From the NCBI GenBank assembly GCA_017549445.1, contig JAFYUU010000010.1, forward strand, positions 1 through 48,729: 48,729 bases of DNA, given 5' to 3'. The DNA is from Alphaproteobacteria bacterium (GTDB lineage Bacteria; Pseudomonadota; Alphaproteobacteria; Rs-D84). Of this stretch, positions 3,863 to 45,554 are shown in pieces. A program made the translations under genes and the position numbers. How positions within the stretch are numbered: position 1 is the first letter of the stretch; each line of letters opens with the position of its first letter. The notes under the pieces are model-generated. The model saw only the letters and a program-made list of their open reading frames with translations. It was not told the origin of the DNA and made no database searches.

Positions 3863-4723
3863 ATGAAAAACCAAGAAAACAAATTTGGAACACCTGTTTC
3901 ATCTGGGCATCCACACATATCGGCCGACACATTGACCCACGGCCTGATAGAAGATGCCGTATTTACACACTCATTTGATACCAATATATCAGAATTCGAG
4001 AGCATTCTGGCAACAAACGTGCACAAATTGCCGATACTGCTCATGAACAATCGAACAACCCTTATGATGTTCATGTGGATAAATTTTGCATCCGCCAGAT
4101 ACAACTCTAATCGTCCATTTGGCAAAAAACCAAGCAGTTTGCAGGAATATTTGCCAAATGCGATATTTGCCGCCCTGTTAAATCACGGGTGGTTGGAATC
4201 ATACGCAAACGACACCATGACCAAACACTATCGTTCCCTGTTTCAGGGTTCCGACTATATCAAAATCGACAACCGCCAGATTCCAGTGGAATTATTGGTT
4301 CTGGAATTTGAACGCAATTTGTGTAATATGTTTGCGTGCCTAAACACTGAAAACCGCCAACAGTTTCAACAAATAATTCCAATTGAACGTGCGGGCTATT
4401 TACTGTCACGCAATTTCAAGGGCGATTTAAGTTTAAACGAATACCTGCCCTTGATAAATCGTCTAAATCGCTATTTTGACATCAGTTGCCTGATTCATGC
4501 CCAGACAGCCCTAATGGACGATTTACCCCCTGCTGTCCGCTCAATGTTATCTGAATTTCAGCAAAACAAGAATCCTGCCAACTTCCCCATATTGTGGGAA
4601 CGTCTGGCCGGCCACCCAAAATATGGTCAACTGTGTGACACATTGGGCAAACGCATAGACGCAATGTTGCTAAACCGCACAAACCAGACATTAAAAGGTT
4701 TTACATCAGACCGCACAAAATAA
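3863..4723 (+). CDS. Hypothetical protein (no signal peptide; C-terminus ...DRTK)
   Basis: Long ORF with its own promoter and terminator. ATG 3863 preferred because the track start at 3839 lies at or before the expected transcription start. Confidence 0.75.
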   Translation: MKNQENKFGTPVSSGHPHISADTLTHGLIEDAVFTHSFDTNISEFESILATNVHKLPILLMNNRTTLMMFMWINFASARYNSNRPFGKKPSSLQEYLPNAIFAALLNHGWLESYANDTMTKHYRSLFQGSDYIKIDNRQIPVELLVLEFERNLCNMFACLNTENRQQFQQIIPIERAGYLLSRNFKGDLSLNEYLPLINRLNRYFDISCLIHAQTALMDDLPPAVRSMLSEFQQNKNPANFPILWERLAGHPKYGQLCDTLGKRIDAMLLNRTNQTLKGFTSDRTK

Positions 4724-4750
4724 AAATCCCCCATTTCGGGGGATTTTTTT
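4722..4750. terminator. Bidirectional intrinsic terminator
   Basis: aaaaatccccc-atttc-gggggattttttt between convergent genes. Confidence 0.85.
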
Positions 4751-4761
4751 CGATACAACTA

Positions 4762-7700
4762 TTAAAAATCATATCTGAATTTAACCATACCTGTTTGTGA
4801 AGTATAATCTTCATGCACCGTCAGGTCATAGTTCAACGACACCTGAACACCACGGTATTCAGTTGTCATACCGATACCAAATTCACCACCCATACGTGAC
4901 AGTCGATCACCCGCCAACACATATGCCGGTGCCCCTGGCATAACAACTGTGATGTCATTTGCATCCGACAGGAAGTCATATGTCACACCTGCACGCAGTT
5001 CTGGACGCAACATCATGCCCCAGTCGTTTGCGATATCAAATGCATATTTAACCCCTGCAACCCCGGACAGATAATCCCCATCCAGTTCATCAGACGATAC
5101 AAATCCATTGTCGTATGCATCCTGAGACACATGCATATAACGGATTCCGACCTCTGGTGTCAGGCCCAATGCGAAATCATAACCCGTCATAAATTGTGCA
5201 CCGTATGCATCAACATCGAACTGTGCGGTCAATTCGCCACCCAACATCTGTGTTTGTTCATCATAATCAGACATTGTATATGTCAACGTTCCGTTCACAT
5301 ACCATTCGGCTGGTTTATACTGACCATAGACAAAGATGCTGTTGCTTTCGACATCTGTATGACGTGCATCTGCATGGATATCCGCATTGCTGTATGAATA
5401 CCCACCACCGATTGTCAAATCGTCGTTTATCAGTATATCGCCACCCATTGCAAATCCACGTGTATATCCATGGAATTGGTCGGCTAACTTGGATTTATTG
5501 AACATACCCTGAACCCAAACACCTGCGGATTCCAGTGCATCTCCACCATTACGTCCAACTGGGCTGATTGCCGCCATACGTTTGCCAGCCATAGTCAAGA
5601 TTTGGTTCTGAACAGATGATGCCACCGCCTGTGCCACAGGTTTGGACGTAGGTGCTGTTTTGGCTGTTTCTTTTTCAACCGTTTCAACATCCCCCGCATT
5701 CAATGCCTGTTGCATTGCCAGCGATATTTTCTGAACATTTGCATTACCCGACTGTGTCAACCCAGACACAACCGATGCGGCCTGGCTTGAAATTCCGGCA
5801 TCTGTTGCCAATGTTTCAGCATCTTTCAGTTCAACCTTGATACCAGACGCCCCATTGTTTGTCACAATGAATGTCTTACCCGCATCAACTGCAAATTCAT
5901 TATTCGCACCAAAGATGTTATATGTTCCAACACTTGCAACATTCAGTTTAACGGTTCCCGAACCACTGATTTCATCGGCATCAACTTTACCAAATTGTGT
6001 TGCACTCAAAACATCAACCCCCAACACACCATTCAGAACAAATTCGCCCTGTTCCACGGTTGTGGCACCGATATTAAATGTTGCCCCATCTGCAACGGTG
6101 AACGAACCAGTTCCCGTGATACCACCGTCGATTGTTGTTTTACCCGATACGATTGTAAACGTTCCCATATTATGGATATCATTTGCAAGGCCATTTGCAG
6201 TATTACCTGTAAATGTATTTGTTCCTGCCAGGGTAAATTTACCACCCTTGTCATTATAGATTGCCCCCCCCATATCACCGGCCTGGTTATTTTCGAATGT
6301 ATTCACACCCGACAAATCAAATACACCGTGATTTGTGGAATCTATCACATTGCCACCGCCAAAGTAGTTTCTGTCAATCCCATTATAGATTGCCCCACCT
6401 GACTTTCCTGCGACATTCGTTGCAAATGTTGTGTTCTTGAAATACACTTCCCCGTCATAGATGCTTTCTAATGCACCACCATAGTTGACGGCCTTGTTTC
6501 CTGTAAATTCTGCACCATCGAATTTCAGATACGAACCATCACGTGATGTATTGTGACGTGCGGACACGGCCCCACCACTGACACCCGATTCGTTATTTAT
6601 AAAGTGCACATCTGTCAATGTTGCCTTGACCTTTTGTCCGGCATACAACGCCCCACCGCCATTTGCATCGGACGCAGCAAAGTATTTCTTACCATCAACC
6701 GTAACACTTTTACCGGCGGTATTGTTCTGGAAATATGTTCCCGTCACCGTTGCATCTAAATACAGCCCCAACGCACCACCGTCTGCGGTTGCGTGGTTGC
6801 TGTCGAATGTGCCACCTTTGATTGTAGTATTCCCTGTTTTTCCAGACGTTGCGAACGCACCATTTACGTATGCAACATTGTCCGAGAATTTAGAATCTTC
6901 TACAACCAATGTTCCATTATTCTTGATTGCCCCACCAAAACCTTCGGCCACAACGTTGCCCTCAAATTCTGCACCCACGATGGTCATATTACCTTTGTTA
7001 AATATTGCACCACCTTCGTCTGTTGCGGTATTTTTCTCGAATTCACCGCCCACGATTTTCATACTTGCCTTGTTATCGGCCTTGTCTGCAACCCCGTCGT
7101 TATAGATTGCACCACCATTTTGTGCGGAATTTCCTGTAAAGTCGGTATTTTTCATATAAACCGCATTACGTTCTGTCACACTGTCATAGAACGTGGAATA
7201 AATCGCTCCTCCCTTCATCACGGCACTATTACCGACAAATTCAGCATCAAATATATCTAATTTTGCCTGGCTGTTATTTCCCATTGATGGTGCACGCATA
7301 GCAATTGCCCCACCATCAGACGTAGAAGTATTGCGTTCAAAATCTGAATCTGTAATTTTTGCTACGGAACTGGAACCAAAGAACAAAGCCCCACCACCGT
7401 CAATTGACGTATTGGAATCCGAATTATCACCGATTACTGTTCCATAAACACTGTTTCCAATAAAGTCAGCTTTTTCAATATCTGCGTTACGTCCCAACCA
7501 CATCGCACCACCTGCGGCATAGGCCCCATTATTCTTAAACTGTGTGCGATTACCATTATAATCTTTTACAAAAACCGATGCATCGAATGCAGTGCTACTG
7601 GATTGTCCGACAACCCCACCAACACCCCACACACCGTGTGCGGATTTAATATTAGAATATTGTCCACCTTCGATGGTCAGTGACGACCCCTTGGACACCT

Positions 7701-44773: not shown

Positions 44774-44797
44774 AAAATCCCCAAAATGGGGATTTTT
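44772..44797. terminator. Bidirectional intrinsic terminator
   Basis: aaaaaatcccca-aaa-tggggattttt. Confidence 0.85.
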
Positions 44798-44981
44798 ATT
44801 TTTTCTTTTGCTGGGCATTTGCGATTACACGTTGCAAATCCATTTTCATCATATCCAGATGCCTAATGACCGCAGACAAATCGTGAACCGTTATATTTCT
44901 GGTATTCAGCATTTTGCGTATAAATGTGACATCCCCCTGCAACTGTTCCTTGGCATCATCATCCAACAATTTAGTCCGCAT
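44796..44981 (-). CDS. Small hypothetical helical protein
   Basis: 61-aa ORF 15 nt downstream of the 44997 gene, ending at the terminator. Confidence 0.55.
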   Translation of the reverse strand: MRTKLLDDDAKEQLQGDVTFIRKMLNTRNITVHDLSAVIRHLDMMKMDLQRVIANAQQKKK

Positions 44982-44996
44982 TACTTGACCCCGGGC

Positions 44997-45554
44997 TTAT
45001 TTTTGATTTTGTCCGGTCACAATCCATGCAACATCCGCCATTGTTGCCGACATTCTGGTTCCCATCCCAGACAACAACTGTGGCATCGCCTCGGCAACAA
45101 ATGCACTATTTGCACAAGCCGACAAACACGCCCAGCGATTCGGCAACGGGTTCAACTTGCCTGTAATTTTATCACGTGTCAAAATCGTTCCATACGCCAA
45201 AGGATGCTTTTCACTTGCCATCGCCACGACAGGATGCGTCATATGCTGAATCAATTTTGGCTGTGGAAAGGTTGTTTTTGGCACTGCAATACCTGCAACC
45301 CCCACGACCTCGCAATCTGACCACTGTCTTTCAACACGGCGAACCAATCCCTTAAAGTCCACACCATCACGAATCAATGGAAACCCATGATATTGAAAAC
45401 GATTCCACATCTTGGCATCCAGATTATAGACAACCGCCCCATAATCAAATCTTCCCAAAATATCCGCCAAACGTTCCTGGGTCAAAACTTCTTTTTCTTT
45501 TGCATATTGAACTTTTGGTTGTCCCCAACCAAACAAATTCTTGAAACTTTTCAT
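44997..45554 (-). CDS. Hypothetical protein, paralogue of 37517..38011 (ends GQNQK)
   Basis: GTILTRDKITGKLNPLPNRW motif. Start uncertain (45554 or 45563). Confidence 0.75.
   Translation of the reverse strand: MKSFKNLFGWGQPKVQYAKEKEVLTQERLADILGRFDYGAVVYNLDAKMWNRFQYHGFPLIRDGVDFKGLVRRVERQWSDCEVVGVAGIAVPKTTFPQPKLIQHMTHPVVAMASEKHPLAYGTILTRDKITGKLNPLPNRWACLSACANSAFVAEAMPQLLSGMGTRMSATMADVAWIVTGQNQK

Follow-up and report, generated by a model that had tools for sequence, protein, structure and literature searches.

Short endings that are read at the free carboxylate are known from several systems, among them SKL of PTS1, KKXX and KDEL in eukaryotes and the SsrA end presented to ClpX. For Agrobacterium, Vergunst et al. 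reportedly described in 2005 a C-terminal Arg-rich transport signal of VirF, VirE2 and VirE3, and the Xanthomonas XVIPCD has a Gln-rich end. According to PMC10025392, the C-terminal signals of type IV substrates in Alphaproteobacteria are hydrophilic and positively charged, with an Arg motif in Agrobacterium in which the charges matter, and VirD4-type coupling proteins read the C-terminal BID domain of Bartonella plus a positive tail, or the XVIPCD of Xanthomonas. PMC3814349 gives at least three basic residues within the last 25 for all known alphaproteobacterial type IV effectors. Here, we describe a three-residue ending, [KNR][QTV][KR]-stop, of nine proteins encoded in a contig of 48,729 nucleotides (the window, analysed over its whole length) from an Enterousia-like bacterium of the order Rs-D84. 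We interpret this tail, found at the ends of approximately one tenth of the lineage-specific proteins, as a sorting tag on which selection acts in the protein itself, and probably as an address label. No published description of it was found in the literature, and the available part of a genomic study of the group (PMC12306168) does not mention the word 'secretion'.

The tail resembles the VirB/VirD4 signal of Agrobacterium (VirF, VirE2, VirE3) in being alphaproteobacterial, uncleaved, hydrophilic, positively charged and C-terminal, with alternating basic positions. It differs from that signal in its two fixed basic positions with dominant Lys, in the specified residues at −2 (Gln, Thr or Val) and −4 (Gln), and in ending exactly at the carboxylate. 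Among the 79 carriers encoded outside the core gene set of the window genome and its nearest relative (classes defined below), position −1 was occupied by Lys in 57 and Arg in 22, −2 by Gln in 38, Thr in 24 and Val in 17, −3 by Lys in 54, Arg in 17 and Asn in 8, and −4 by Gln in 30. Spaced Arg residues of the Agrobacterium type were not found further upstream, positions −5 to −8 of these carriers showing no preference for basic residues. As in the S4TE charge rule (PMC3814349), at least three H/R/K were present in the last 25 residues of 77/79 carriers, and 46/79 had a charge of at least +2; the rule is a loose one without fixed positions, and 73–76% of the other proteins of these bacteria also pass its H/R/K part. 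The positive charge of the carrier C-termini is partly circular, since two of the basic residues belong to the motif; upstream of it, at −25 to −4, carriers are still more basic than other non-core proteins (+1.33 versus +0.67, p = 0.02).

Unlike the BID and XVIPCD domains of approximately 100 residues, many carriers have fewer than 150 amino acids in total, and no BID- or XVIPCD-like domain was among the 10 Pfam families matched by 42 carriers of the nearest relative, which fall into 39 unrelated clusters. In form, the tail is comparable to PTS1, KKXX, KDEL and SsrA, with three to four position-specific terminal residues and no enrichment of a shifted pattern, whereas sequence and organisms differ. 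An SsrA-like degron was ruled out: the local transfer-messenger RNA (tmRNA) tag ends with the non-polar MAA, the motif is polar and basic.

Enrichment and position specificity of the tail

The window is contig C10 of a genome bin (G000) of 763 kb in 19 contigs, 64% complete, with a G+C content of 44%. The closest named records to it are 'Candidatus Enterousia sp.' and alphaproteobacterial bins from ruminants. According to PMC12306168, Enterousia belongs to the order Rs-D84 and comprises gut bacteria with genomes below 1 Mb that lack most biosynthetic pathways and are thought to depend on other cells. The genus comprises more than 120 species genomes, the nearest of which share 77–80% DNA identity with G000 over conserved genes. 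G000 uses the standard genetic code, with TGA stopping genes that overlap the next start. The cell envelope has two membranes, and the window encodes an autotransporter, an OmpA-ended protein of 1731 amino acids, SurA and a lytic transglycosylase. For comparison, the nearest relative (G103, 963 kb) and a genome from another family of the same order (G040, 919 kb of approximately 1 Mb) were used.

Genes were called with a self-written open reading frame (ORF) caller based on a dicodon model trained on long ORFs, with greedy choice and gaps filled with long ORFs. It covers 90% of the DNA, misses for example the gene at 10230–10499 and the frame at 15552–16568, and surely includes some false ORFs, which can only dilute a terminal motif; wrong start sites are harmless to the counts because the protein end is set by the stop codon alone. 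Proteins with a tblastn match (E < 1e-5) in G040 were classed as core, those with a match only in the sister genome as genus, and those with none in either as orphans. As 8% of G040 is missing, some core genes are misclassed, a bias that runs against the effect observed.

In G000, the motif ended 41/721 proteins (5.7% of all and 10% of non-core proteins), whereas 16.0 were expected from position-wise residue frequencies and approximately 2 from overall composition. The corresponding values were 43/925 versus 17.0 expected in G103 and 13/889 versus 9.2 expected in G040. Internally, the motif made up 0.30% of tripeptides, with 3.0 per 1000 in both core and non-core proteins. The preliminary description had suggested testing for an enrichment in orphans over core genes, and the counts showed one. 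The G000 carriers comprised 3/343 core, 20/245 genus-only and 18/133 orphan proteins (non-core 38/378; odds ratio (OR) 12.7, p = 1.7e-8); with the window contig left out, 3/329 core, 15/229 genus-only and 15/124 orphan proteins carried the motif (non-core 30/353; p = 1.2e-6). The same was found in G103 with 2/462 core, 25/258 genus-only and 16/205 orphan proteins (non-core 41/463; p = 9e-11) and in G040 with 1/480 core and 12/409 non-core proteins (p = 9e-4). The difference was present in each of four length classes, which rules out a length artefact of the core/non-core split, and it was also obtained with model-called genes alone (non-core 66/728, core 4/786). The window is approximately three times denser in the motif than the genome (8/39 called genes versus 41/721).

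The tail is fixed to the free C-terminus. In G000 and G103 taken together, [KR][QTV][KR]-stop ended 71/841 non-core versus 4/805 core proteins; shifted inwards by one residue, the pattern was found in 3 non-core and 5 core proteins. The excess depended on the residue at −2, with Gln in 34 non-core versus 2 core, Thr in 23 versus 0 and Val in 14 versus 2 proteins, while Lys, Gly, Arg, Ile and Leu at this position showed no clear excess in non-core proteins. The motif preceded by Gln at −4 was observed in 26 non-core and in 0 core proteins, and terminal Arg was fourfold commoner in non-core (104) than in core proteins (25). Ile at −2 and Glu at −4 are further variants, seen in the protein families analysed below. 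In G040, [KR]-x-[KR]-stop ended 39/409 non-core versus 14/480 core proteins, with Ser preferred at −2 (10 versus 1), so the rule apparently extends to the whole order, the preferred residue at this one position varying locally. The consensus is [Q/E]-[K/R]-[Q/T/V, also I]-[K/R]-COOH, with a variant with Ser at −2 in the sister family.

Conservation of the tail and properties of its carriers

Orthologues of the carriers largely retain the tail, as the preliminary description had predicted for a genuine tag. Among 522 reciprocal best pairs between G000 and G103, 16 contained a genus-class G000 carrier, and 12/16 partners also carried the motif; of 200 genus-class pairs without the motif in G000, 7 had a G103 partner with it. 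The residues beside the tail were often unalignable, as in SDRTK versus LQKQK, GQNQK versus KRRQR and ACKQR versus KQNVK. The family of the window gene at 3863–4723 has homologues in 3/120 genus genomes at 36% identity; all four members (4/4) end in the motif (RTK, KQK, KQK, NQK), while the preceding 10–15 residues cannot be aligned. Orthologues of 9907–10230 were found in 6/120 genus genomes, the ends being KQK, KVK (four times), KTK and KAK, of which 6/7 fit strictly and 7/7 are K-x-K. At the position of 10230–10499, the genes of seven species end with NQR (three times), KSR, KMR, KQK and NQK (5/7 strict). The family of 41119–41964, which resembles DUF3419, is expanded; it occurs in 90/121 genus genomes, a single genome giving up to six matches, and tandem copies are frequent. 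A strict match was seen in 22 of the 31 ends read and [KR]-x-[KR] in 30, and three more distant records end with RIR, RVR and RIR. The G103 orthologue of 44997–45554 ends with RRQR in an otherwise unalignable tail. At nine loci encoding distant relatives of the latter, the ends were NRK, RGK, KQR, RKK, KSR, SVR, LEK, RRK and KDL, most of them basic and 1/9 strict.

When the carriers were clustered without their last six residues, the 41 from G000 gave 35 clusters without detectable similarity and the 43 from G103 gave 39. Unrelated clusters thus share the tail, which means that it arose or was kept many times independently. A Cys-rich family with CNGC...C motifs (G000 contigs C3, C5, C15 and C18) ends with C-[DI]-[HN]-Y-K-[TI]-[KR]; the motif is present in four of its members, and the end of a fifth is DHYKIR.

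Carriers are poor in known domains. The 42 G103 carriers matched 10 Pfam families in nine proteins, compared with 44 families for 42 random non-core proteins without the motif; the nine are three DUF3419 proteins, a thymidine kinase, a thymidylate kinase, a dCTP-deaminase-like protein, an APH-type kinase and two core enzymes. A search against phage families matched capsid/head, protease and lysin families in the motif-free controls, whereas carriers matched only generic enzymes and four unnamed families. A phage-gene signature was ruled out, since phage families occur in the controls and phage structural families are absent from the carriers. In a crude hydropathy test, 12/79 carriers had an N-terminal hydrophobic segment versus 335/762 other non-core proteins (p = 2.6e-7), leaving 67/79 versus 427/762 without one; among these 494 non-core proteins, 67 carry the tail. 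Membrane segments were detected in 14/79 carriers and in 316/762 other non-core proteins. The G103 carriers were also shorter, with a median of 151 versus 233 amino acids in other non-core proteins.

Three consecutive enzymes of a radical-SAM cassette (L158:532–4260, G000 contig C19 55531–59259) end with RQR, KVK and KVK. The SPASM enzyme of this type ends with WIG[KR]P[KR/L/I...] across phyla, and WIGKV[KR] is restricted to the clade with identities of at least 71%. The conserved rpsP-rimM-trmD-rplS operon of G000 (contig C17 11353–14224, L160:2354–5225) harbours two small lineage-specific ORFs between its genes, a Cys-rich one of 110 amino acids ending with CKQR and one of 66 amino acids; the G103 operon (L045:14836–17586) contains inserted ORFs of 108 and 91 amino acids ending with QNVK and GKTK. 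In G040, the four genes are contiguous, unlike in G000 and G103.

Secretion machinery and competing explanations

This host-dependent lineage has a conserved chromosomal VirB/VirD4 system, as do the Rickettsiales. Among 200 genomes of the order with a completeness of 90% or more, 198 encode a protein of the VirD4 family; all 20 genera sampled are represented, and the two exceptions are approximately 90% complete. VirB4 was found in 4/5 genomes searched (G103, G074, G003 and G040) and VirB10 in 5/5 including G000, so the virB/virD4 genes that the preliminary description had suggested looking for are present in the lineage. VirD4 is 75–100% identical among the 120 relatives listed, a conservation well above that of the carriers. 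A search of five genomes for two relaxase families found neither. TolC-like outer membrane proteins are encoded in 5/5 genomes, a secretin is also present, and a type VI sheath protein was searched for and not found. A gene for a protein of 1007 amino acids beside one of the TolC-like genes of G000 may, at a guess, encode an efflux pump. A co-fold of the cytoplasmic part of G103 VirD4 (residues 130–733, 42-row alignment) with a DUF3419-like carrier of G103 (23-row alignment) scored 0.00 with a mark of 0.32 and was uninformative either way.

Instead of a signal in the protein, the tail could be a by-product of forces acting on DNA or mRNA at stops, such as an A-rich termination context, the terminator A-tract or an unstructured leader of the following gene, which would become visible only in young, fast-evolving genes with weakly constrained protein ends. 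In bacteria generally, Lys and A-rich codons are favoured before stops, and this bias is shared here. In every gene class of G000, G103 and G040, the last sense codon preferentially ended with A; terminal Lys was encoded by AAA in approximately 90% (85:9 and 79:13) versus 69–73% internally, terminal Arg by AGA in about half versus 11% internally, and terminal Glu by GAA in approximately 95%. TAA made up 75–82% of the stops, and 28–30% of all proteins ended with Lys in these three genomes. However, Lys at −1 was alike in core and non-core proteins (28% and 31%) and is therefore explained by the general stop context, while the rest of the motif is not, the pattern at −2, −3 and −4 being class-specific.

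Many carriers have a terminator hairpin directly after the stop, and the motif was associated with a close terminator (15/40 versus 127/697, OR 2.7). Within non-core genes, it was found in 17/108 with and 21/247 without a close terminator, and the motif Gln (−2 and −4) was encoded by CAA in 61/70 cases (approximately 87%) versus 66–74% for internal Gln before Lys. Both observations weigh against selection on the protein alone, and a residual DNA-level signal remains in the Gln codon choice. The preliminary description had itself considered that A-rich terminator flanks might bias some ends. The class difference nevertheless survived in genes without terminators (non-core 21/247 versus core 2/235 in G000, 25/319 versus 1/313 in G103) and in operon-internal genes without terminators (12/113 versus 2/109 and 16/146 versus 1/162, respectively), which rules out the terminator A-tract as the sole cause. 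A-rich DNA read in any frame was ruled out as well: K-Q-K (34) and K-T-K (23) by far outnumber K-N-K (4), although all three are A-runs with one C, and Val (GTN) at −2 and Arg encoded by CGN fit the motif without being A-rich. In the DUF3419-like family, both basic positions are encoded by AAA, AGA, CGA, CGT, CGC and CGG, with Arg mostly by CGN. Core genes have the same stop context but not the motif, and the retention in orthologues of 35–55% identity would imply selection above the usual effects of stop context. An origin at the nucleic acid level is therefore improbable in our estimation.

The assumption that there is no common signal at all, and that the motif is a post hoc sum of family-specific structural endings and paralogy, fares worse still. 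It draws on the paralogy of two of the nine window proteins, on the SPASM ending, on the DUF3419-like tail lying within the fold, and on the fact that the residue classes were picked by the reader of the window to suit it. Yet the motif so defined was tested on unseen data, giving 3/329 core versus 30/353 non-core in the rest of G000 and 2/462 versus 41/463 in G103, the carriers belong to 35 and 39 unrelated clusters, other residues at −2 are not enriched, and a shift by one residue abolishes the effect. This assumption is largely refuted and has only a very small chance of being correct.

The tail may also be a protein-level tag with another reader, serving protection of loosely folded new proteins from C-terminal proteolysis or control of their turnover, transport by a type I (TolC) or other route, placement at the membrane or nucleoid, or a role after delivery inside the partner cell. 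The evidence for an anchored, conserved and class-specific protein-level tail applies to such a tag equally, enzymes of a cytoplasmic type are found among the carriers, TolC-like proteins and a secretin are encoded, and, since the tmRNA tag ends with MAA, a polar and basic tail is the very reverse of the standard C-terminal degron. Against it, a general stabilizing end should reach core proteins with free tails, yet the motif ended only 4/805 of these in spite of their equal share of Lys at −1. Signals for type I secretion usually have acidic residues and few Lys, and no candidate for a reader protein was identified. We consider a tag of this kind rather unlikely, although it is a serious competitor of export by the type IV system.

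Export through the VirB/VirD4 type IV system is, in our tentative ranking, the best explanation of the tail, held at somewhat below even chances. It is ranked first because the carriers agree with the loose charge criteria for known type IV signals and fit the profile of effectors in being lineage-restricted and fast-evolving, without known domains or Sec signals. In an extended conformation, the tail would offer its free carboxylate and its alternating basic side chains to an adaptor or the coupling protein, and the carriers (approximately 40 per genome) would constitute an effector repertoire sent into a partner cell that supports these metabolically dependent bacteria; both the reading by VirD4 or an adaptor and the delivery to a partner cell are conjectural. 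In its full form, in which Q-K-[Q/T/V]-K-COOH is the transport signal of an order-wide chromosomal VirB/VirD4 system and defines approximately 40–50 mostly unknown effectors per 0.9-Mb genome (approximately 5% of the proteome), the proposal is slightly more doubtful. Of the two parts of the preliminary description, the lineage-specific C-terminal tag that marks a protein class is supported by the enrichment, the terminator control and the retention in orthologues, while export by a type IV system stays at the level of inference.

Several observations weigh against export. No result ties the tail directly to a secretion machine; neither VirB4 nor VirD4 was detected in the 64% complete G000, none of the genes flanking virD4, virB4 and virB10 in G103 encodes a protein with the tail, and VirD4 has no acidic extension suited to a basic tail. 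The type IV signals known so far are less strictly defined and are not tied to the final three positions. The 14 carriers with membrane segments are unexpected, as are ordinary-looking cytoplasmic enzymes such as the thymidine kinase, the thymidylate kinase, the dCTP-deaminase-like protein and the three radical-SAM cassette enzymes, and the rpsP-rimM-trmD-rplS operon with its small carriers is an odd site for effector genes. In a confident model of the DUF3419-like protein (pLDDT 88.6, pTM 0.89), the tail ends the last beta-strand and is thus predicted not to be a free appendage. The [KR]-x-[KR] end of the SPASM enzyme is ancestral across phyla, and only the change from Pro to Val is special to the close clade; an ancestral basic end makes the radical-SAM cassette no strong counter-example to export and weak evidence either way. 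Finally, all counts rest on an ORF caller that misses genes, and G000, G103 and G040 are kin and not independent samples.

If export by the type IV system holds, the tail is a new form of C-terminal basic transport signal and would be the most sharply defined signal known for type IV secretion, present in an uncultured group, with a code that shifts at one position by lineage (Ser at −2 in the sister family); otherwise, it is an unexplained proteome-wide rule. Effector prediction is unreliable because the signals for type IV secretion are notoriously loose, and a terminus-fixed motif that is conserved across more than 100 species, confined to lineage-restricted proteins and kept out of housekeeping proteins would offer a directly testable recognition code. 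For Rs-D84 and Enterousia, the motif narrows the candidates for interaction proteins to a concrete list. Should it instead be a stability code or the mark of another sorting route, it would still be a proteome-wide rule that parts new genes from old in one lineage.

The nine window genes and their surroundings

Translation of the nine intervals gave exactly the C-termini reported in the preliminary description, three of the genes lying on the minus strand, and Gln at −4 was confirmed for 6/9. The gene at 3863–4723 (+) encodes a protein of 286 amino acids without a known family that ends with SDRTK, and a terminator hairpin follows its stop directly. The small membrane protein of 107 amino acids encoded at 9907–10230 (+) ends with LQKQK; its gene is operon-internal, the stop overlapping the next start (TAATG), and the second gene of this operon, at 10230–10499 (+), encodes a small hydrophobic protein of 89 amino acids ending with NDNQR. 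A further small membrane protein (103 amino acids, ending with AQKVK) is encoded at 10483–10794 (+), with a terminator after the stop; a homologue was not found in G103 or G040 at E < 1e-5. The protein of 142 amino acids encoded at 23649–24077 (−), which ends with KQKVK and is also followed by a terminator, is a true orphan, its sole match among 5.8 billion proteins being its own 97%-identical cluster.

Two of the nine, the protein of 164 amino acids encoded at 37517–38011 (+), which ends with HGNQK and belongs to a multi-copy family, and that of 185 amino acids encoded at 44997–45554 (−), which ends with GQNQK, are paralogues, so that the nine proteins represent eight independent families. 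The latter gene is operon-internal at a distance of 15 nucleotides from the next gene. Their family has six matches in G000, and six further G000 paralogues of 37517–38011 end with KSR, LGR, KER, KYK, RRR and KTK. The DUF3419-like protein with a methyltransferase fold (281 amino acids) encoded at 41119–41964 (+) ends with LQRTR, and the protein of 54 amino acids encoded at 41989–42153 (−), with an N-terminal membrane segment, ends with VQKQR. These two convergent genes share one two-way terminator hairpin in their 24-nucleotide gap (41964–41989). A near miss, the protein of 61 amino acids encoded at 44796–44981 (−) next to 44997–45554, ends with QQKKK; its G103 orthologue ends with NCKQK and fits strictly.

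The restriction of the motif to the proteins named in the preliminary description was correct: among the stop-to-stop frames of the window of at least 60 amino acids, only eight of its ORFs end in this way, the ninth having 54 amino acids, and the closest other ends are indeed IQK (1757–3556), SVK (15552–16568) and YVK (28138–28878). Its designation of the nine as orphans needs one correction, as 8/9 have no Pfam or NCBIfam family and 41119–41964 matches DUF3419 (E = 1.1e-11, over the cut-off). The alleged lack of signal peptides is only roughly right, with membrane-like hydrophobic segments in 9907–10230, 10483–10794 and 41989–42153, in the last case N-terminal.

A permuted (two-piece) tmRNA gene is located on contig C19 of G000 (24904–25255) and on contig C5 of G103, with the tag AANDNVRLAMAA ending with MAA; ARAGORN found no tmRNA in the 92% of G040 available. 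The window further encodes five large proteins of 689–1731 amino acids at 24155–28126 (−), 29879–32209 (+), 32237–37432 (+), 38037–40985 (−) and 46169–48238 (−), of which 4/5 have no Pfam family; the protein of 1731 amino acids contains CPL1-like repeats and resembles OmpA at its end. The AT skew of the plus-strand block at 30–38 kb differs. Three Cys-rich proteins of approximately 270–294 amino acids, encoded at 631–1512 (−), 19348–20229 (−) and 20248–21045 (−), match the eukaryote-type Ephrin_rec_like repeat (E = 1.8e-12 to 1.3e-5); they have low coding scores, and one of the three was missed by the ORF caller. The autotransporter encoded at 4762–7980 (−) has Chlamydia-PMP repeats and ends with FRYDF. 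A second, unrelated class of conserved ends, of the aromatic barrel type (RFVF, RFMF, RYEF, VIFYF), was observed in many proteins (G000 contig C15).

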